10,263 bases of DNA from Candidatus Hodarchaeota archaeon (GCA_048887225.1 JBHLJY010000025.1:27112-37374); one strand, 5' to 3'; counted from the stretch's first letter, positions 2-10,263 are shown. Notes: generated by a model not told the origin, from the letters alone. Numbers and translations: made by a program.

Positions 2-3000
2 CCACAAGGTGATTGGGACTCATTAGGAAACGGTTCCGTTGTAATTATTGTTTACGCTAACGATACCCTTGGCAACTTAGGTTCGGCACAAGTAACAGTA
101 AGAAAAGATATAATTGCTCCATATATTATAATAGATTCACCAGAGAATAATATTTATTATGATGATGATGATCGTCCAATGATTAATATATCTGCATACG
201 ATTCAAACTTCGATTCAATCTGGTATATCATTGGAACAATTAAAATAATGCTAGAAAATAATATAGAAGAAGAAATTGACGCTTCAATCTGGAATAGCTT
301 AAAACAAGGGGAATTTTACGTTTATATTTACGCTAATGATACTCTTGATAACGTTAATGACACTTACGTGTTAATGTTATTTAAAGACACTTTAGCTCCT
401 ATATTAACAATTAATTCTCCAAATAATGGGAGTTATTATAATTATCAACCCATCATCAATGTAGCTGCCTTTGATCCGAATTTAGATGATATCTGGTATC
501 GAGTTAGCCAAGATCTAAATATAATAGGGCAAAAAATATTAGATAATAACAATACGGATGAGCCATTAAGACTAAATATTTGGGAAGGATTGGGGCAAGG
601 AGATTTTCAAATTGAATTTTGGGCAACTGATACTTTCAATAATATCAGCGACACTATTATTTTTAGCTTATATAAAGACACATTAGCACCAAAAATAGAG
701 ATTAATTCACCCAATAACCTGACTTATTGGAACACACCACCATCTATCAATGTTTCTGCCTTTGATCAAAAAATAAGTCAAATATGGTATAGAGTTTATT
801 CGACACTTACCGATTGGAGTGCTAATATAACGCTTATAAATAATACGGAAAAGTCATTTAATACTACTATCTGGAATAGCTTGGAACAAGGAGCTTTTCA
901 AATTTATTTTTATGCTAATGATTCCCTTGGGAATATGAGTGAAATTTCTATTTTAACTTTATACAAAGATACATTAATTCCTGAAATCACAATTAACTTA
1001 CCTATTAACGTGACTTTATGGAATACACCTCCGCCAATTAATATATCCGCTTCCGATCAGAAATTAAATAAAATTTGGTATAGAGTTCACATGGTATTTA
1101 ATAATTACTGGAGTGGTAATATAACGCTGACAAATAATACAGAACAGTTTTTTAACATTTCAATATGGTTATTCAGCTTACCGCAAGAATGTGAATTCCA
1201 GATTTTTATTTACGCTAATGATTCCGTAGGTAACATAAATGATATTTATGTATTAACTTTATATAAAGATGTTATAGCTCCAAGAATTACAATTGATGAA
1301 CCTGATCCGTACGATTTATTTGGAACTATAGAACCTAATTTTGATATTGTAAATGAAGATGCTAATTTAAATTCTTCATGGTATATATTAATTAATGAAA
1401 CAAATCCATTGGATCGTACAAATAAATATATATTGACAGGAGAAACTGGTACTATAAACCAAGCAGGATGGAACAGGTTTGAAAACGGTACAATAATAAT
1501 TAGATTTTATGCAAACGATACTTTAGGAAACGAGACTTATAGAGAAGTAATCGTTCGCAAAGATATTTATGCACCATTAATTACGATTTCTAATCCTGAT
1601 ATGTACGATGTATTTGGAATCATCGCCCCTAATTTCACCATATACATTGATGGTCCAGTGAATATGAGATGGTATTCGATATATAACGGATCTGATTGGT
1701 CAGAAAACTTCACTATTGCTGGAGAATTCGGTACAATAGAAGGAACAATCAACCAAACGGCATGGGATAGATGTGGAAACGGCACAGTTATAATTAAATT
1801 TTACATAAATGATACAGTAGGAAATATAGGATTCGCCTTTGTCACAGTAAGAAAAGACATATTTGCTCCTATGATTACGATTAATTTGCCAGAACTTAAT
1901 GTTTGGTTTAATAGCCCACCAACACTTAATGCCGAATGTTTTGATCCTAACTACCATACCTTATGGTATAGAGTCTATTCATCATCTTTAGGGTGGAGTA
2001 ATAATATAACATTAATGAATAACACAGATCAACTGCTTGATGGAGATATATGGAATTGGTTGGGGCAAGGAGAATTTAGAATTTATTTTTACGCTAACGA
2101 TACTGCTGGTAATCTTAACGAAACTTACCTAATATCATTTAAAGACACACGTGCGCCTAATCTTATAGTTAATTCACCCGAAGACGGATTATATTATAAT
2201 ACTCCTCCTCTTATCATTTGGTCTGCTTACGATCCAAATTTAGATGATGTCTGGTATTCTGTACCTGGTTTTGTTCCAATAGAATATCTTGAAAATAATA
2301 ATACAGAAGCTTTAAATGATACTTACTGGGAAGATTTAGATCAAGGAATGTTTCAAATAAATATTTACGCTGTGGATAGATTCAATAATGTTAGTTACCA
2401 AATTATAACATTATACAAAGATACGAGAGCACCTACTATAATAATTAATTCACCAGAAAATTTATCATATTGGAAGACAGCACCAATATTGGATATAATC
2501 GCCTATGATCCTAATTTAAATACTACTTGGTATGGGAACGGGACCCATAATTTCACTCTAACGTATATTGGACAAGAACTTGAGGCTTCAATATGGGATA
2601 ACTTACCACAAGGACCATTTATAATATATATTTACGCCAATGATACTTTCGGTCATATCAATGACATATTTCTTTTAATCTTATATAAAGATACAATAAT
2701 TCCTGAGATAACAATTATTTTACCTAGAAACGAATCGTATTGTAGGGTACCAATAGATATACATGTATCCGCATCTGATACAAACCTAAATACAACGTGG
2801 TATAGAGTTTATTCATCGTTTCTTGATTATTGGAGCGATATAATAACGCTAACAAATGATCAAGAACAGATGCTTAGTGCATCAATATGGAATATCTTAC
2901 CAGATGAAGAACCATTTCAAATATATATTTACGCTAACGATTCAGCCGATAACATAAATAATATTTATGCATTAACTATATATAAAGATGTTATCGCTCC

Positions 3001-4714
3001 AAGAATTACCATTAATATTCCTCACACAAATGATTTATTTGGAGCCAACGCTCCAGGTTTTGATATCACGATTATCGAGCCTAATTTAAACGCTACATGG
3101 TACTATTTAGTAAACACAACAAATCCGTCAGCTTTTACCGCTAACTACACATTTGTATATTTAACAGACTTTACAATTTTACAGAGCGTATGGGAACAGA
3201 TGGAAAATGGAACCGTAACGATTTACTTTTACGCAAACGACTCTGCAGGCAATATTGGGTTTAATGATATAACCGTTAGAAAAGATATTATTGCCCCTCT
3301 CATTATAATTAACCAACCCGAACAAACCGAGCTTTTTGGAGCTGACGCTCCGGATTTTGATATTACTATTGTCGAGCCTAATTTAAACGATTCATGGTAC
3401 TACTTAGTAAACGCAACAAATCCATCAGACTTTACCGCTAACTACACATTTGTATATTTAACAGACTTTACAATTTTACAGAGCGTATGGGAACAGATGG
3501 AAAATGGAACCGTAACGATTTACTTTTACGCAAACGACTCTTCGGGCAATAGTGGATTTAATGATATAACCGTTAGAAAAGATATTTATGCTCCAATAAT
3601 TACAATTATTGAACCTACTTCACTTGAATTTTATGGCATCAATGCCCCAACTTTTGAGATATCTATAAGTGGGATAGATATAAATACTACTTGGTATGTT
3701 TTAGTTGGCAACACAACTAAACATAAATTTACAGAAACGACTGGAACAATTAATCAATATGCATGGAACGGCTTTGGAAACGGATTTGTGAATATTCAAT
3801 TCTATATAAATGATACATCTAGTAATGAAAATTACCAGGATATATGGATCAGAAAAGATATTTCAGCACCAACTATTACGATAAATCTACCTATTAACGA
3901 TACTTATTGGGATACAGAACCACTTATCGAAGTAATCGTAATTGATAATTATGGTCCTATTAATATTGATTCTGTCTGGTATAGAGTCGGTTCAACTAAT
4001 AAATCATTAACACGTCAATCGCCAACAACTTGGAGCGAATTGTTTGATGGTTTGATATGGAATAACCTACCAAATGAAGGACTATTTCAAATTTACATTT
4101 ATGCAGAGGATTCTGTCGGGAATGTTAATGATACATATATGTTAACTTTATATAAAGATATTATTGCTCCAAGAATTACGATAGAATTACCAAATGAAGG
4201 TGATATAATTGGAAGGACGTCTCCTTTTTTTAATATTTCTATCCAAGAGGATAATAATTATACTTGTTGGTATACTATTGATGGGGGTAAAAATAATATA
4301 ACTTTCACCAAATTGGATGGAAGGATCGATTATGCTTTATGGGAAAATGTATGGGATAATTTATCCGTAAACTCTTATATTATAATCAGATTTTACGCAA
4401 AAGATATCGTTGGAAATATTAGTTATGCAGAAGTAAAAGTTATAAAGGGTTATTTTTATCAAACTATCATTGCCGATAATGGAGAAGATGATGGTGATGA
4501 TGAATCCGAAAGGAGTGAAATTTTATTTGGTCAAATTCCCCTGATTATTACTGGTATAGCAGTATGTATTATGATTCCTGTTTCTATAGCAATAAGAAAA
4601 AGTCGATTTTATCATTCTTACGAGAGAAAATATAAAAAAGCAATTAATAAGATTTTGTTTTTAGCTATATTCCTTTTAGTTCTAATCTTTTTAGCCTTTG
4701 CTTTCCATTTTTAA
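2..4714 (+). CDS. Giant membrane-anchored surface (glyco)protein with tandem Ig-like beta-sandwich repeats; 5'-partial, at least 1570 aa
   Basis: The frame of the 179..4714 ORF has no stop back to position 2 (PQGDWDSLGNGSVVIIVYANDTLGNLGSAQVTVRKDIIAP...), so Met 179 is internal. It contains 15 complete ~90-100 aa repeats plus one partial, with consensus KD-xxAPxIxIxxP...WY...IW...G...YAND(T/S)xGN...(L/V)xKD. It ends in an acidic linker (DNGEDDGDDESE) and two hydrophobic helices (4520-4594, 4652-4711) separated by a basic loop. Confidence 0.9.
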   Translation, partial: PQGDWDSLGNGSVVIIVYANDTLGNLGSAQVTVRKDIIAPYIIIDSPENNIYYDDDDRPMINISAYDSNFDSIWYIIGTIKIMLENNIEEEIDASIWNSLKQGEFYVYIYANDTLDNVNDTYVLMLFKDTLAPILTINSPNNGSYYNYQPIINVAAFDPNLDDIWYRVSQDLNIIGQKILDNNNTDEPLRLNIWEGLGQGDFQIEFWATDTFNNISDTIIFSLYKDTLAPKIEINSPNNLTYWNTPPSINVSAFDQKISQIWYRVYSTLTDWSANITLINNTEKSFNTTIWNSLEQGAFQIYFYANDSLGNMSEISILTLYKDTLIPEITINLPINVTLWNTPPPINISASDQKLNKIWYRVHMVFNNYWSGNITLTNNTEQFFNISIWLFSLPQECEFQIFIYANDSVGNINDIYVLTLYKDVIAPRITIDEPDPYDLFGTIEPNFDIVNEDANLNSSWYILINETNPLDRTNKYILTGETGTINQAGWNRFENGTIIIRFYANDTLGNETYREVIVRKDIYAPLITISNPDMYDVFGIIAPNFTIYIDGPVNMRWYSIYNGSDWSENFTIAGEFGTIEGTINQTAWDRCGNGTVIIKFYINDTVGNIGFAFVTVRKDIFAPMITINLPELNVWFNSPPTLNAECFDPNYHTLWYRVYSSSLGWSNNITLMNNTDQLLDGDIWNWLGQGEFRIYFYANDTAGNLNETYLISFKDTRAPNLIVNSPEDGLYYNTPPLIIWSAYDPNLDDVWYSVPGFVPIEYLENNNTEALNDTYWEDLDQGMFQINIYAVDRFNNVSYQIITLYKDTRAPTIIINSPENLSYWKTAPILDIIAYDPNLNTTWYGNGTHNFTLTYIGQELEASIWDNLPQGPFIIYIYANDTFGHINDIFLLILYKDTIIPEITIILPRNESYCRVPIDIHVSASDTNLNTTWYRVYSSFLDYWSDIITLTNDQEQMLSASIWNILPDEEPFQIYIYANDSADNINNIYALTIYKDVIAPRITINIPHTNDLFGANAPGFDITIIEPNLNATWYYLVNTTNPSAFTANYTFVYLTDFTILQSVWEQMENGTVTIYFYANDSAGNIGFNDITVRKDIIAPLIIINQPEQTELFGADAPDFDITIVEPNLNDSWYYLVNATNPSDFTANYTFVYLTDFTILQSVWEQMENGTVTIYFYANDSSGNSGFNDITVRKDIYAPIITIIEPTSLEFYGINAPTFEISISGIDINTTWYVLVGNTTKHKFTETTGTINQYAWNGFGNGFVNIQFYINDTSSNENYQDIWIRKDISAPTITINLPINDTYWDTEPLIEVIVIDNYGPINIDSVWYRVGSTNKSLTRQSPTTWSELFDGLIWNNLPNEGLFQIYIYAEDSVGNVNDTYMLTLYKDIIAPRITIELPNEGDIIGRTSPFFNISIQEDNNYTCWYTIDGGKNNITFTKLDGRIDYALWENVWDNLSVNSYIIIRFYAKDIVGNISYAEVKVIKGYFYQTIIADNGEDDGDDESERSEILFGQIPLIITGIAVCIMIPVSIAIRKSRFYHSYERKYKKAINKILFLAIFLLVLIFLAFAFHF
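110..4450 (+). repeat. Array of 15 complete Ig-like coding repeats (~270-300 nt each)
   Basis: Units start right after each KD codon pair at 110, 389, 680, 971, 1271, 1565, 1859, 2147, 2423, 2693, 2990, 3287, 3584, 3860 and 4160. Confidence 0.9.
2990..3583 (+). repeat. Recent 297-bp tandem duplication (repeats 11 and 12)
   Basis: 3134-3244 and 3431-3541 are identical over 111 bp at an offset of 297. The flanks are similar but diverged. Confidence 0.95.
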
Positions 4715-5041: not shown

Positions 5042-5803
5042 TTAAATATTATTTCGGGAGTTGGGGATTCCAGAAAAATAATTTTTATGTGTTAATATTA
5101 CCGTAAAGATCTCGCAGCCTTCAGCATATGTTGTTATATCCATATAAACAAGTTTAGGATCTGATTCATCCAATAAAACACCATCAGGTGTATAACTACT
5201 ATGAGCAAGTATTGGATTATTACAATCATATAATCGGAAAGTACCTGTCCAGATATCAGGGTGACAACCACAGCCACCACTTTCTGGAGGTAATGGCCAA
5301 TGGGTTACAGAGTAAGTTTCTACCCAATCTATATACAATTTGGCACCATCTAGAGGACACCAATGATCATTAACCCATTGCTCTAATTCGACCAATGAGT
5401 AATCAAGTTCGTAATTACCATAAACAGCGGCTTCAATAGTTAAGTCGCCAACATTATTTTCATCAATATTGTAAGGTAAGATTTGTGTTATTGTACCATC
5501 ATCTTGTTTAACTCCGAAATTCTTAAGCTTGATTGATCCTGCTTCAACTAAAAAGCCGCCGATCCTGTCTTCTTCCGGTACTAACACGGTCTTATTGTTT
5601 CCAGAATTTTCTGATAATGGAAATGATTGTTCCGAAATAGCGTTTTCCACCACATTGGATTTCCTTGTAGTTTCAATTTGAACGCTATTATTTGACCCCA
5701 TAACTCCCATGACAAATGCCACGAAAATAACAACAACTGCGATTGAGATAAGAATCCCAGCAATAGTCTTAGAATCACTTTTATCGCTGTTATCAGTTAC
5801 CAT
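5042..5803 (-). CDS. Hypothetical membrane-anchored protein, 253 aa (N-terminal TM; Cys/His-containing C-terminal domain)
   Basis: TM segment TIAGILISIAVVVIFVAFVMGVMG, a polar S/N linker, then a globular region with HWC, GGCGCHP and two more Cys. SD-like GTGAT at 5817-5813 and an in-frame upstream stop at 5849-5851. No family recognised. Confidence 0.8.
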   Translation of the reverse strand: MVTDNSDKSDSKTIAGILISIAVVVIFVAFVMGVMGSNNSVQIETTRKSNVVENAISEQSFPLSENSGNNKTVLVPEEDRIGGFLVEAGSIKLKNFGVKQDDGTITQILPYNIDENNVGDLTIEAAVYGNYELDYSLVELEQWVNDHWCPLDGAKLYIDWVETYSVTHWPLPPESGGCGCHPDIWTGTFRLYDCNNPILAHSSYTPDGVLLDESDPKLVYMDITTYAEGCEIFTVILTHKNYFSGIPNSRNNI

Positions 5804-5953: not shown

Positions 5954-6475
5954 CTATGAATATAAAGAAAAATCGAAATCGGAAACAAATTGTTTAGATG
6001 ACATTTCTTTTCCCGAGCAAAACTCTTTTAATATTATTGTACTAAAAAGAAAACAGGAATATAATTTACGAATTCTTTTAAAAATAGAATTTTTTGAAAT
6101 TATTCCATCTTTTTTAAGAAATATTTGTTCGCTTATTTCGTATTTATAATTTTGGGCATCAATTCGAAAATAAATTTCTTTATTAATAAAATACTTACGT
6201 AAAAATGCAAAAAATTGAATTTTATCATTGTTTTTTAGTGAATCAAAAGTTTTAATTTCTTTTTTTGGCATTTGCGTTTGTAATGATAATATTATAGAAT
6301 CTTTATCCTTAAGTTTAAAAATAGTCATTCTATTACCTTTTGATCTTGGAGGATAAGAAAATATGAATCCAAATTCTAATTTAGAATCAGGATCAGGTAT
6401 TTTTTCTCTTAAAATCCCCTCATCTAACAAGTATTCTCGGATTAAATGCTCAATTTTACTTTTTTTCATTGACAC
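5954..6475 (-). CDS. DUF2299-family protein (conserved archaeal, function unknown)
   Basis: The N-terminus IREYLLDEG...EFGFIFSYPP, the later ISEQIF..DGIISKN.IFKRIRKL segment and the ~170 aa size resemble DUF2299 as recalled. The track start is GTG at 6475; ATG at 6469 is an alternative. Confidence 0.7.
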   Translation of the reverse strand: MSMKKSKIEHLIREYLLDEGILREKIPDPDSKLEFGFIFSYPPRSKGNRMTIFKLKDKDSIILSLQTQMPKKEIKTFDSLKNNDKIQFFAFLRKYFINKEIYFRIDAQNYKYEISEQIFLKKDGIISKNSIFKRIRKLYSCFLFSTIILKEFCSGKEMSSKQFVSDFDFSLYS

Positions 6476-6790
6476 TTCTAATCTGTAAATGAAAAAGAAT
6501 GTAATTTATTTATTCTTTTTTAATAGACAAAATTTTCTAGATAATTATTAATGATTTTTATTGTTTTTTATTAATTTTTAATATATTTGACCAACTCTTA
6601 ATTATGGTTCTTCTTGTTAATGTAACTATTAAATTAATTCTTTAATTTAAAAGATTATATTAATTTCTTTTTTCATTTTTTTCATAGGAGAAAATTGAAA
6701 AGACCATGTAAAGTATATTAATTATTATGTGATACATTAAATTTAAAAAAGTAATTGAATAATTTAACATAAGGGAATTTAATGTAATTT

Positions 6791-8803
6791 TTGATTAAGA
6801 TGGTATTGAATTTGCAAGAGGTTGGTGGTATTGAGAAGGCAACCATGGAAAAGATGAGAGCCATGGGAATAGATTCAGTTGAAAAACTAGCTTCAATCAA
6901 ACTTGAAAATTTATTGAAAATTAGTGGCATTGACAAATCTACGGCGATTAAATATATAACGAACGCTAATAAATTACTTGAAGAAATAAAAGACGACGTA
7001 ATTTCCAAAGGAGAAGAGCCAATTAGCAAAAAAGGAATTTTTGAAGATATTACTCCTATACAAGAACCAAAATTTCGAATTCCTAAAGGAAAAGAACCAA
7101 TAGACAACAAAGCAGTTTTTAAAGATATCACTTCTACGCAAGAACCAAAATTTCGAATTCTTAAAGTAAAGCAACCAAATGATAACAAAGCAGTTTTTGA
7201 AAAAAAAGTATCCTCTAAAGGAGAGATGCCACTAGATAAAAAAGTAAGAAGCCAATTGATAAAAAAATATTTAAGGAATATGCAAGAACCAAAGTTTCGG
7301 ACTCCTAAAGTAAAGGAGTCACACGATACAAAAATAGTTATTGAAAAAAAAGTTTTCCGTAAAGGAAAGGAGCCAATTGATAAAAAAGTAATTATTAAAA
7401 GAAAAGCCCCTTCTAAGTACAAAAAAATTCCTGAACAGTATAGTCCCTCTAAAGCAAAACCAATTAGAGAGGAAATACCTTCAAAAAAAAAACCTAAAAA
7501 GAAAAAAATTCAAGACACATTTTTTCCTCAAGAAATAATGCAAAAAATTCGGTTTTTACATTTTAAAATTAAGCATTTAGAAGAATTTTTACTAAAAGAA
7601 CATGAAGATATTGAATTAGAAGAGCTCAATTATGTATGGGATTATATAAAACTTTTAAATGTCAATTATAAAATTCAAAGTCAAATAAAGATTTTTAAAG
7701 AATTAGATCTTACAACGACCTTTTATGATCCTATTGAAAATAAATATATTAATATATGGGACATAATGTTTGAGTGTACTCGAGTGTTATGGGTGTTAGC
7801 AAGAGTCTATGCTCAACTTTCTGAAAAATATGAACTAGAGAACAATTTGAAAAACGCAACAATTTCGATGGTAGAATGTAGTAAAGCTTATAAAACTGCG
7901 GCACATTTTAGTGCTGCATGTACTCGTCAAGAAGATAAGGGGTTGTCCTTATCTTTTGACAATCTTGAATTGAATTCTGAAGAGGCCCGAATATTTGCCC
8001 AGAGCCTTGCTGCTACAAGAGAAGAAAATAAGAAAAACTTTTTTCTTGCGTCTAAAATGTATGCAGGTTTGAGTGCTTTATCAAAAAGATTGTCATATTT
8101 AAAGGAAAATGATAGCATAAGGAATTATCAATTAAGAGCTCAATCTAATTATGATCTAGGCAAAGCATATAATTTAAAAGCCACTGCAATATTAAAAGAT
8201 TCAGATTTAAATGAAAACGGAGAAAATATTAAGAGACTACGTCAAAAAGCTAACTATCTTTTCTCTAAGGCGGAGGGACTTTGGGAATTCATACGAGATA
8301 ATTTCAATGAACTTTCAAAAAGAGAATTGAATAATATAAGGATTAATTTATCTATTGTTAATGAAGATATTATTGAAAACGATGTAGAGATTCCAGATTT
8401 CGATAAAATTAAAGATATTGAAGAAATTGAGCCATTTATAGCAGTTCCGGAAAATGTAGCGCCTATTGTACCAAGAACTACAATGTATTTAACAAGCTAT
8501 GGTCCTAGAAATCTTGAATTTAATACATTCAAAGAATTTAAAAAGAAGAAATTAGAAACGAATTTTCGTTTAAGCAAAATAGAGAAATTACAAAATAAAA
8601 AAGCAGGAATCGGGCGAGTAATTAAAGAATTAAAAATATTAAATGAAAACAATGACATTGATATAAACACGTTTATTGAACTTTTGGAAAAATACTCGAT
8701 TGAACTCAAAATGGTTGAAAGCGCCATCGATAAATTAAAAAATCCTGATGAGAAGGCCAAAACGGTTAATAGCCAATTTAATAATATTACCGTGAAAAAA
8801 TAA
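6791..8803 (+). CDS. Multidomain protein: HhH (RadA-N/HHH_5-like), K/P-rich repeat linker, BRO1-like domain and C-terminal steadiness-box-like hairpin
   Basis: LQEVGGIEKATMEKMRAMGIDSVEKLA...LLKISGIDKSTA is a tandem HhH. aa ~241-570 align by eye with the BRO1 consensus and aa ~594-651 with the TSG101/Vps23 steadiness box. The track start is TTG 6791; ATG 6800 is an alternative. The CDS and HhH calls are secure; BRO1 and SB are inferred. Confidence 0.75.
   Translation: MIKMVLNLQEVGGIEKATMEKMRAMGIDSVEKLASIKLENLLKISGIDKSTAIKYITNANKLLEEIKDDVISKGEEPISKKGIFEDITPIQEPKFRIPKGKEPIDNKAVFKDITSTQEPKFRILKVKQPNDNKAVFEKKVSSKGEMPLDKKVRSQLIKKYLRNMQEPKFRTPKVKESHDTKIVIEKKVFRKGKEPIDKKVIIKRKAPSKYKKIPEQYSPSKAKPIREEIPSKKKPKKKKIQDTFFPQEIMQKIRFLHFKIKHLEEFLLKEHEDIELEELNYVWDYIKLLNVNYKIQSQIKIFKELDLTTTFYDPIENKYINIWDIMFECTRVLWVLARVYAQLSEKYELENNLKNATISMVECSKAYKTAAHFSAACTRQEDKGLSLSFDNLELNSEEARIFAQSLAATREENKKNFFLASKMYAGLSALSKRLSYLKENDSIRNYQLRAQSNYDLGKAYNLKATAILKDSDLNENGENIKRLRQKANYLFSKAEGLWEFIRDNFNELSKRELNNIRINLSIVNEDIIENDVEIPDFDKIKDIEEIEPFIAVPENVAPIVPRTTMYLTSYGPRNLEFNTFKEFKKKKLETNFRLSKIEKLQNKKAGIGRVIKELKILNENNDIDINTFIELLEKYSIELKMVESAIDKLKNPDEKAKTVNSQFNNITVKK
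7007..7390 (+). repeat. Degenerate coding repeats (QEPKFR x3; KGxEPIDxK-type x4) in the linker of the 670-aa protein
   Basis: CAAGAACCAAA(A/G)TTTCG occurs at 7061, 7139 and 7283 (offsets 78 and 144). 7139-7246 and 7283-7390 encode paralogous 36-aa blocks. Confidence 0.9.
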
Positions 8804-8816
8804 ACTTTAACATTCC

Positions 8817-8850
8817 AATTTCTTTCTCTTTATTCAATTTCATTATTTTT
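8817..8850 (+). terminator. Putative T-rich terminator after the 670-aa gene
   Basis: A pyrimidine/T-rich tract (TTTTCTTTCTCTTTATT...TTATTTTT) begins ~15 nt after the TAA at 8803. Confidence 0.35.
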
Positions 8851-8910
8851 AAAATAATTTTTTAATAGCATAAATGATTGTATTAAATGAATATTAATAT
8901 TACTTTATTT

Positions 8911-8915
8911 GGAGG
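8911..8915 (+). promoter_or_regulatory. Shine-Dalgarno GGAGG
   Basis: GGAGG-CATAT-ATG(8921) in an otherwise very AT-rich spacer. Confidence 0.8.
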
Positions 8916-8920
8916 CATAT

Positions 8921-10263
8921 ATGTCTAAAAAACATGTAGTTTTTCTTAATGCTATTAAGAAATTTTGGTTTTTTCTAGTAATTGGAGTAGTACTCATAAT
9001 CTTTCTATTTAATAGAGAAATTTCAATATGGATTACGATTATTTTCTTGATAGCATTAATTTCATTTTATTTACCGTCTCTTTCATTTAAATCTAGATTA
9101 ATTCGATTTATGAATAAATATAATACAATCGAGGATAAAACGGTTGCTCTAAACTTTAAGCTCCCATTAGAGGATATTAAAGAAAAAATGAATAAATTGT
9201 ATAAAAGTCAGAAAAGGAAAAATTGGCTTATTATATTTTCAACCGATCGCTATATTTTCTTTCGGCAGGACACTATTAGAAAATTTAAAGAACTCTATTA
9301 TAATGGATACAATGAAAAACAAATTTTCGAAAATTTGAAAAAAGATATAAATATTAGGACTAGAGCTGAAATTAAAGTTATAATAGATACATTAAATAAT
9401 CTAAATAAACTCAAAGATATTAAAAAATTAAGAGAAGTAGCGGCCGCAAAACCGAAAAAAGCACCAAAACTGAAAAAAGCACTAAAACTGAAAAAAGCAC
9501 CAAAACTGAAAAAAGCACCAAAACTGAAAAAAGCACCAAAACCTAAAAAAGCACCAAAACCGAAAAAACTGCCAAAACCTAAAGAAATCGAGATAGAAAT
9601 GGCATTAAAAAAAGCGGACAAACTTCACATAAAACTAATGAGATTAGATAACAAATGGCAAAAACTTGACGAAAAATATCCGAAAGATTTAGAGAAAATT
9701 CAACAACACGGTGAGCCAATTCTAGAAGAAATGATGCAATATATTGACGAAATACAAAAAATAAATATAAAATCTTTAGCAGCAAAAAAAATAATCGATA
9801 GTTGGATTCGCACATATCAATCACGAAAGGTTGCTATTGAAGAATATCGAAAAAAGCGAAAAGAAGTTTTTAAAGATATATATAGTGAATCACATGAAAT
9901 AGAACAACAGCAACTAATTGAAAGGGCAACTCTTATCAAGCCTAAGGTACCAGGTGTTCCTAAAGTCGCTAAAAAAACAATTAAACCAATTGAAATAGCT
10001 ACTCTTGTCAAACCTAAGGTACCAAAAGCTAAAAAACCAATTAAATCAATTAAAATAGATGAGAAACAGCAATCTACATATGAAAAAGTGGATTTGGCTC
10101 AATATATAAAAAAAATTTCAAAAATTTCTATAAATCTAGAAGATCAAAAGCAAAATGAAATAACTATCACTTCAGATTTATTAGACGACAATGGGGAATT
10201 AATTCAAAGAGGATGGTCTCGAAAACCAATTCTAAATTACAATCGGGAAAAAATTAAAGCTGG
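8921..10263 (+). CDS. 3'-partial membrane protein (at least 447 aa): 2 TM, winged-helix-like region, K/P repeats, MIT-like domain and DUF2804 N-terminus
   Basis: Translated by hand: MSKKHVVFLNAIKKFWFFLVIGVVLIIFLFNREISIWITIIFLIALISFYLP... stays open to the window edge. It is absent from the track, presumably because it has no stop in the window. Strong SD. The final segment QNEITITSDLLDDNGELIQRGWSRKPILNYNREKIKA (from 10151) matches the recalled DUF2804 N-terminal pattern QxEIT...LLDxxGxL...GW(A/S)RxP.L.YNR..IKA. Confidence 0.88.
   Translation, partial: MSKKHVVFLNAIKKFWFFLVIGVVLIIFLFNREISIWITIIFLIALISFYLPSLSFKSRLIRFMNKYNTIEDKTVALNFKLPLEDIKEKMNKLYKSQKRKNWLIIFSTDRYIFFRQDTIRKFKELYYNGYNEKQIFENLKKDINIRTRAEIKVIIDTLNNLNKLKDIKKLREVAAAKPKKAPKLKKALKLKKAPKLKKAPKLKKAPKPKKAPKPKKLPKPKEIEIEMALKKADKLHIKLMRLDNKWQKLDEKYPKDLEKIQQHGEPILEEMMQYIDEIQKINIKSLAAKKIIDSWIRTYQSRKVAIEEYRKKRKEVFKDIYSESHEIEQQQLIERATLIKPKVPGVPKVAKKTIKPIEIATLVKPKVPKAKKPIKSIKIDEKQQSTYEKVDLAQYIKKISKISINLEDQKQNEITITSDLLDDNGELIQRGWSRKPILNYNREKIKA
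9449..9583 (+). repeat. 18-bp tandem repeat, 7.5 copies, encoding K(P/L)KKAP
   Basis: Consensus AAACTGAAAAAAGCACCA. Units read KPKKAP KLKKAL KLKKAP KLKKAP KLKKAP KPKKAP KPKKLP KPK; units 3-5 (9485-9538) are identical. Confidence 0.97.
9926..10060 (+). repeat. Imperfect 2-copy coding duplication (72-nt offset)
   Basis: ATLIKPKVPGVPKVAKKTIKPIEI versus ATLVKPKVP----KAKKPIKSIKI; both copies contain CCTAAGGTACCA. Confidence 0.85.

Follow-up and report, generated by a model that had tools for sequence, protein, structure and literature searches.

A conserved two-gene module of one Asgard lineage encodes a predicted BRO1-fold protein and a membrane-anchored winged-helix partner

Whether an archaeal gene pair could bring DNA to the membrane through modules related to the ESCRT machinery (complexes of endosomal sorting that are required for transport) is a question raised by the end of a contig from Candidatus Hodarchaeota archaeon (GCA_048887225.1; assembly of 3.27 Mb in 49 contigs, 98% complete). 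The window analyzed here is a stretch of 10,263 nucleotides (JBHLJY010000025.1:27112-37374, on contig C25) that runs to the contig end. A preliminary description of it had proposed, for positions 6791-10263, a chromosome-to-membrane ESCRT recruitment system made of two adjacent co-oriented genes 117 nt apart, one encoding a soluble and the other a membrane-anchored protein. Both open reading frames (ORFs) were found on the plus strand in this arrangement. Gene 1 (6800-8803) encodes a soluble protein with a helix-hairpin-helix (HhH) domain, a basic linker, a predicted BRO1 fold and a steadiness-box (SB)-like hairpin, 667 aa in length from ATG 6800; its open frame spans 6791-8803 with an alternative start at TTG 6791, and ATG 6800 was taken as the start because the homologs and a 667-aa database copy point there. 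Gene 2 (8921-10263) is cut by the contig end and comprises a membrane hairpin, a tandem winged helix (WH), a lysine- and proline-rich (K/P) linker, a three-helix insert, a second K/P linker and the start of a DUF2804 domain. Its start is most likely ATG 8921, which has GGAGG seven bases upstream and gives the spacing of 117 nt; the spacer (8804-8920) is A/T-rich with T runs, and a search of it for an intrinsic-terminator-like hairpin found none.

The two genes are a conserved two-gene module of one Lokiarchaeia-type Asgard lineage, a placement that follows the names carried by the homologs ('Promethearchaeota'). We collected loci of the gene 1 (BRO1) family from 74 species-level genomes with 6-kb flanks, and counted pairing for the HhH-BRO1 genes with at least 700 nt of downstream sequence (n = 30). 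A co-oriented gene for a transmembrane winged-helix (TM-WH) protein lies 36-192 nt downstream in 26 of the 30, so that the adjacency seen at this locus is conserved among its relatives and the refuting condition which the preliminary description had set on it, a lack of conserved adjacency, does not hold; in two of the four exceptions (L041 and L097) the membrane gene is found 2.5-3.4 kb farther on. Tandem HhH-BRO1 genes stand around or before a single membrane partner at L050 (2257-7320), L041, L043 and L097. Among 400 Asgard genomes searched, the BRO1 family is present in 127 of the 134 genomes of the source's GTDB family and the partner family in 124 of the same 134. Outside it, the BRO1 family appears as weak matches only, in four of the five genomes of one further family, to which the relatives P0156-P0158 belong, and the partner family as four weak matches. 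Some metagenome-assembled genomes that carry the family are titled Hermod-, Hod- or Odinarchaeota at NCBI, while the GTDB-based tally assigns every strong match to one family.

The lineage also holds an HhH-less BRO1 paralog of ~412 aa (C7:53519-54757 in this genome), which is followed by a TM-WH gene in 4 of 40 cases. One BRO1 gene goes with one WH gene in 56 of 70 genomes, and two or more go with two or more in 52 of 58 (Spearman 0.76 for the two copy numbers, related genomes not being independent). Because the copy numbers track each other, each BRO1 paralog appears to come with a membrane partner of its own, genetically linked in the case of the HhH form and not so in that of the short form. 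A stand-alone paralog consisting of a membrane hairpin and tandem WH, ~186-200 aa long and with 42% identity to the core of gene 2, is encoded at C5:13424-14026, unlinked to a BRO1 gene. Next to the HhH-less paralog stands a divergent ATP-grasp gene in 31 of 36 loci; when only loci of 12 kb or more are counted the figure is 21 of 21, and the distant relative P0156 shows this linkage too. In 20 of the 36 loci a gene for a JAMM/MPN-type protease is found no more than 6 kb from the paralog.

The identification of gene 1 as a BRO1 protein comes from its modeled structure. The C-terminal 430 residues are 52-71% identical across more than 500 proteins, and an AlphaFold2 (AF2) model of this part, built on 28 diverse members, has a mean predicted local distance difference test score (pLDDT) of 83.8. 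In a Foldseek search with this model the top 21 matches are all BRO1 domains (BROX, HD-PTP, ALIX and yeast Bro1; E 9e-6 to 1e-4), and the match that follows them is a tetratricopeptide repeat (TPR) protein at E 4e-3. VIA-align gives Z scores of 20.7-22.6 against all 16 solved BRO1 entries and 12.2 for the next fold, with 277-303 residues aligned, which takes in model residues 1-328 and almost all of each solved domain. The BRO1-fold domain is thereby placed at 7499-8476 (residues ~237-562). Its core is TPR-like, the next-best structural matches being TPR scaffolds, and by structure the closest clusters of the ESM Atlas belong to eukaryotic BRO1 families (TM 0.53-0.58). We consider the BRO1 fold, which the preliminary description had also assigned to gene 1, to be established at the level of the structural model.

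Sequence comparison reaches BRO1 by way of a more distant member of the family. A six-frame scan of the genome with Pfam BRO1 did not find the domain at the gene 1 locus, and no BRO1 match was obtained with NCBIfam or with phmmer and profile searches against the PDB sequences; phmmer against 1.8 billion representatives returned 56 matches, none of about BRO1-protein length beyond the family's own members. P0157, a distant member of 405 aa, aligns along its entire length with gene 1 (E 4e-18), and itself matches Pfam BRO1 at E 3.2e-8 with 33.3 bits, slightly under the cut-off of 35.1. At the sequence level P0157 is thus a bridge from gene 1 to BRO1, and homology of the gene 1 domain to BRO1 is likely.

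Behind the BRO1 fold, gene 1 encodes a predicted helical hairpin (8567-8752, residues ~593-654) of about 60 residues, in which the AF2 model has two long antiparallel helices (residues ~588-650; model residues 353-384 and 390-415, mean pLDDT ~82-89). The genome's best match to the Pfam Vps23_core model (E 0.003) is C2:1624-3669, a frame of 682 codons with zinc ribbons, a coiled coil and a C-terminal steadiness box, which ends ~1.2 kb upstream of an ESCRT-III gene (C2:4820-5473); its product fits the Asgard-specific Znr_CC_PH_SB family (PMC10936438). Even true Asgard SB proteins match Vps23_core weakly (E 3e-4 to 5e-3), and a genome scan with this Pfam model at E<=1 matches contigs C2, C6 and C4 only. 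A profile of the gene 1 hairpin by itself found no ESCRT-I chain among the PDB sequences at E<=10. We built an SB profile from the SB region of proteins of the C2:1624-3669 type from eight genomes. In hhalign this profile matches that of the gene 1 hairpin at 90.6% (E 1.3e-6, 61 gapless columns) and that of the whole gene 1 C-domain at 75.9%, with the hairpin stretch alone matched; the control, the K/E-rich helices of gene 2, gives 0.3%, and composition alone can let helical hairpins score in such comparisons. The profile match supports a steadiness-box-like nature of the hairpin, in line with the proposed steadiness box.

At its other end gene 1 begins with an HhH domain (6809-6949, residues 7-53), which passes Pfam HHH_5 (PF14520) at 27.1 bits against a cut-off of 27 and also aligns to the N-terminal region of RadA (NCBIfam, E 8e-6), and so is RadA-N-like. 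HHH_5 is on record for most of the more than 500 homologs (E down to 1e-193), which are annotated at most as 'helix-hairpin-helix domain-containing protein'. The HhH domain is followed by a basic, disordered low-complexity linker (6983-7510, residues ~65-240), in which many homologs have a second HhH. Here the linker contains a 78-nt tandem repeat in 2.5 copies with 83% matches (7003-7198), indicative of recent repetition. In all 30 homologs compared its net charge is +15 to +40, with a length of 63-285 residues and a sequence that cannot be aligned; because the charge stays constant while sequence and length vary, the basic character appears to be a conserved property. The HhH domain of gene 1 has a relative with 49% identity at the N-terminus of an aIF2-gamma-like GTPase encoded at C5:8357-9949 on the minus strand.

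The conserved core of gene 2 consists of a membrane hairpin and a tandem winged helix. Two hydrophobic helices (8963-9073; residues 19-34 and 40-55, numbered from 8909) with basic residues on either side were read from the sequence, are kept in ~30 partner genes, and bear out the assignment of this protein to the membrane. Their basic flanks point to an N-in/C-in hairpin by the positive-inside rule, which would place the tandem WH (9080-9448, residues 58-180) in the cytoplasm. An AF2 model of residues 58-345 has a pLDDT of 95-98 over residues 58-167, where DSSP gives the order helix, strand, helix, helix, strand, strand and then three more helices. The top Foldseek matches of this core are nearly all winged-helix proteins. 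Its alignments to the tandem WH of SelB cover 104-115 residues (Z 8.5-10.2), and the WH repeats of UFL1/DDRGK1 are matched at Z 8.3. Nucleic-acid-binding-type modules are thus found in both proteins, as the preliminary description had it, and DNA binding by them is a prediction.

The remainder of gene 2 is peculiar to few proteins. A KKAPKL-type hexapeptide repeat (9447-9583) is encoded by a recent tandem repeat of 18 nt in 7.6 copies with 91% matches; its composition is 49% K+R and 21% P with a net charge of +20, and it is not present in the closest homolog, P0181. With the 78-nt repeat of gene 1, it agrees with the earlier picture of expanding polybasic K/P linkers. The three-helix insert that follows (9578-9934, residues 224-342, pLDDT 80-89) is lineage-specific and had been called an MIT domain, an assignment that fails. 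The insert has no match to Pfam MIT (PF04212) at E<=10; compared by hhalign with six MIT domains of the same genome it scores 0.2%; none of the 14 six-frame MIT matches in the genome is on contig C25; and neither P0181 nor any of the ~30 canonical partners has the stretch. Modeled from a single sequence as a bundle of ~120 residues, the insert has generic best matches (CNOT3 at Z 10.6, BAG, syntaxin Habc and spectrin; Z 8-10.6, a range common for helical proteins), with no Vps4-type MIT among the matches listed.

The last 36 residues of gene 2 (10151-10263) match positions 1-36 of the 339 of Pfam DUF2804 (PF10974) at 26.1 bits. The final 77 nt of contig C25 (10187-10263) are identical to C16:1-77, which places an assembly break inside gene 2; the frame continues for 332 codons on C16:1-999, and the joined product has 758 aa with a full DUF2804 domain. 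The join is supported by P0181 (661 aa, encoded on a single contig elsewhere), whose fused architecture is the same: the membrane hairpin and winged helices recur in it, the linker is shorter and the DUF2804 domain is complete (429 bits over positions 1-339). Gene order supports the join as well, since C16 goes on with genes for DnaJ, DnaK and GrpE, which also come after the pair in other genomes. P0181 is the sole match in 5.8 billion proteins to residues 226-451, which cover the insert, the second linker and the DUF2804 start. The fusion is found in two known proteins only, and the usual partner elsewhere has 162-206 residues. For DUF2804 itself no solved relative was found by sequence and the literature yielded one passing mention: in Pseudomonas, a regulator of glycerolipid metabolism has a DUF2804 gene listed among its targets (PMC8151288). 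The genome encodes DUF2804 once more, at C3:44480-45490, with 44% identity to the C-terminal domain of gene 2.

Contact between the two proteins was modeled by complex prediction, in which the winged-helix domain of gene 2 was paired with two parts of gene 1, its HhH domain and its BRO1/hairpin part. The complex score was 0.43 (runs 0.39-0.52) against 0.12 for the best control, a verdict of weak support. Of 80 solved complexes, 58 pass the mark for this score, as do 2 of 110 mismatched pairs; those that pass with a score of 0.60 or below are 7 of the 80 solved complexes and both of the passing mismatches, a band in which a pass is wrong more often than right unless the guess had been a likely one from the outset. 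The three runs share at least 86% of their contacts, with a partner pLDDT of at least 82. Replacement of the BRO1/hairpin chain gave a score of 0.00, so the modeled contact is with the BRO1/hairpin part and not with the HhH domain. Given the strong prior from synteny, the prediction lends modest support to binding between the gene 1 and gene 2 proteins, and is not proof of it.

We propose that the gene 1 and gene 2 proteins would act as a pair, in which the winged helices of gene 2 would hold gene 1 to the membrane by its BRO1/hairpin part while the HhH head and basic linker would touch DNA or another polyanion. The BRO1 domain would engage the tail of an ESCRT-III protein, and the steadiness-box-like hairpin would engage Vps28 or other SB proteins; the outcome would be a membrane-anchored adaptor coupling the nucleoid to ESCRT-driven membrane remodeling. 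We give this full DNA-membrane-ESCRT mechanism, whose ESCRT part is drawn solely from domain kinship, a probability of about 40%. That the pair is a prokaryotic DNA-tethered ESCRT adaptor, in which a BRO1 and steadiness-box protein with a DNA-binding head and a dedicated tandem-WH receptor recruits ESCRT-III and so couples the nucleoid with scission, we consider unlikely.

Several observations weigh against an ESCRT role. The 6-kb flanks of the 74 BRO1-family loci contain neither an ESCRT-III nor a Vps4 gene, and the ESCRT genes of this genome are on other contigs, namely C14 (Vps4 next to ESCRT-III, C14:26068-26709) and C2. The BRO1 family was not found in a sister family that holds closed genomes of 4.4 and 6.0 Mb; it is confined to one GTDB family with weak matches in a second, and is therefore no general Asgard ESCRT component. 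With the MIT call gone, gene 2 is left without an ESCRT-type domain, its conserved part being the membrane hairpin and tandem WH only. Neither Pfam BRO1 (PF03097, cut-off 35.1 bits) on gene 1 nor Vps23_core (PF09454) on its hairpin gives a match at E<=10. HhH and winged-helix domains can also bind proteins, and the HhH of the gene 1 type is fused here to the aIF2-gamma-like GTPase. To these we add the composition caveat on the hairpin profile and the band into which the complex score falls. Of the recruitment system first proposed, the conserved module and two ESCRT-type domains have stood and the MIT domain and ESCRT linkage have not; because of these two losses and the narrow range of the family, we infer chromosome-to-membrane ESCRT recruitment from domain kinship only.

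The main rival is a membrane-nucleoid tether or scaffold that works without ESCRT. The BRO1 fold and hairpin would then be generic TPR-like or coiled-coil binding surfaces, and the winged-helix partner would keep the DNA-binding head at the membrane, for example in chromosome positioning or segregation. Such a tether accommodates the pairing and the shared narrow range of the two families, which stand without any ESCRT linkage, as well as the TPR-like nature of the BRO1 core with its TPR scaffolds as next-best structures, and the basicity of the linker, conserved as a property. However, two ESCRT-type modules (BRO1 at Z ~22 and the SB-like hairpin at 76-91%) are unlikely to have met in one protein by chance, and the HhH-less paralog often lies near a JAMM/MPN protease gene (20 of 36 loci), a neighborhood that recalls the links between BRO1 proteins and deubiquitinases in eukaryotes. 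An ESCRT-free tether is in our judgment a serious explanation, if a somewhat unlikely one.

The presence of winged helices in a membrane protein also invites a regulatory reading, in which the gene 2 protein sequesters the HhH-BRO1 protein or itself regulates through DNA, and a membrane or lipid signal, sensed here by the added DUF2804 domain, brings about release and alters nucleoid binding or transcription. The resemblance of the tandem WH to nucleic-acid-binding WH pairs (SelB, MarR-type) agrees with such a membrane-gated regulator, as does the DUF2804 target of the Pseudomonas regulator (PMC8151288). There is no sign of a particular DNA site or regulon, however, and DUF2804 cannot account for the conserved pair because it is fused in so few of its members; we find this reading improbable. 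The pair might also be a co-chaperone or client adaptor of the neighboring DnaJ-DnaK-GrpE system, with the TPR-like BRO1 domain binding the acidic C-terminus of DnaK. The three chaperone genes follow the pair in the source genome (on C16) and in some other loci, but the linkage is partial: 14 of 38 pair loci have DnaK within 6 kb, or 6 of 15 when the locus extends over at least 12 kb, and the HhH-less paralog has no such neighbors in any of 36 loci. A role with DnaK thus strikes us as very improbable.

The proposed DNA-membrane-ESCRT adaptor may be compared with several known systems. In LEM2/Heh1-CHMP7 of the nuclear envelope, a small helical DNA-binding-type head, a basic low-complexity region, two membrane helices and a winged helix are combined with a link to ESCRT. 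The logic is similar to that of the pair, whose parts are divided over two proteins, and we regard it as an analogy only: the HhH of gene 1 is not a LEM/HeH fold, and no MSC-type winged-helix match was seen for the pair. CdvA of crenarchaea is an ESCRT recruiter with an SB-like hairpin, reported binding of DNA and membranes, a PRC-barrel, and at its C-terminus a peptide for binding the winged helix of CdvB; it has the SB-like hairpin in common with the pair but not the BRO1 fold, the HhH domain or a separate membrane partner.

Among eukaryotic BRO1 proteins (ALIX/PDCD6IP, 2oew and 3c3o; yeast Bro1, 1zb1; HD-PTP/PTPN23, 3rau and 5mk2; BROX, 3zxp and 3r9m) the same fold is aligned over chain residues ~20-360. 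The gene 1 protein shows 10-13% identity to them and is without a V domain or proline-rich tail; instead it has the N-terminal HhH, the basic linker and the C-terminal SB-like hairpin. With the ESCRT-I steadiness box (Vps23/Vps28/Vps37) and Asgard Znr_CC_PH_SB proteins (PMC10936438) it shares the C-terminal hairpin of ~60 residues, which in known ESCRT-I proteins follows a UEV, coiled-coil or PH region and in gene 1 follows the BRO1 domain. As for tandem WH modules (the SelB C-terminus, 1lva and 2pjp; UFL1/DDRGK1; ESCRT-II), residues 58-180 of gene 2 align to the SelB WH pairs, with no ESCRT-II entry among the matches listed; gene 2 differs in being membrane-anchored and has no sequence similarity to a named family.

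The surroundings of the pair are in part conserved. A DUF2299 gene (5954-6475, minus strand; Pfam DUF2299, E 2.3e-14) stands upstream in divergent orientation and is a frequent neighbor: synteny, which the preliminary description had put forward as a check for this gene as well as for ESCRT loci, holds for DUF2299 in three of four loci looked up, and fails for the ESCRT loci. One locus (L023) has a DUF2299 gene upstream on the same strand, and tblastn found the neighbor in several further loci. Farther upstream, 2-4714 (plus strand) encodes a giant repeat-rich surface protein of more than 1570 aa, open at its 5' end, which carries a membrane anchor at the C-terminus; at the equivalent relative position other genomes have homologous proteins with Big-type repeats. 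Between them, 5042-5803 (minus strand) encodes a protein of 253 aa with an N-terminal membrane helix, a Cys-rich C-terminal part and no family match, and similar genes are found upstream of the pair in a few other loci. Antisense ORFs over the repeats, such as 6718-7422 on the minus strand, are unsupported and were taken as by-products of repeat composition.

A dedicated survey in 2024 could not identify BRO1/ALIX in Asgard archaea, so that it is among the few core ESCRT accessory modules missed there (PMC10936438). A 2023 survey gave Bro1 as the best domain for proteins of Hod-, Njord- and Thorarchaeia (PMC10307638); the sequences in its supplementary table are of ~75-155 residues, come from other lineages and do not belong to the gene 1 family. 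The main text of two recent structure-based surveys is without mention of Bro1. Any claim of ancestry to the eukaryotic proteins is tempered by the narrow range of the family, one GTDB family among those searched, and a lineage-specific invention, loss elsewhere or transfer are all possible origins. If our reading is correct, a BRO1 module exists in archaea, as a functional parallel to ALIX and to LEM2-CHMP7. The combination of a BRO1 fold with an ESCRT-I-type hairpin would then offer a concrete handle on archaeal ESCRT targeting, the more so with a membrane partner and a DNA-binding-type head, and could show whether a link between nucleoid, membrane and ESCRT predates the nucleus.

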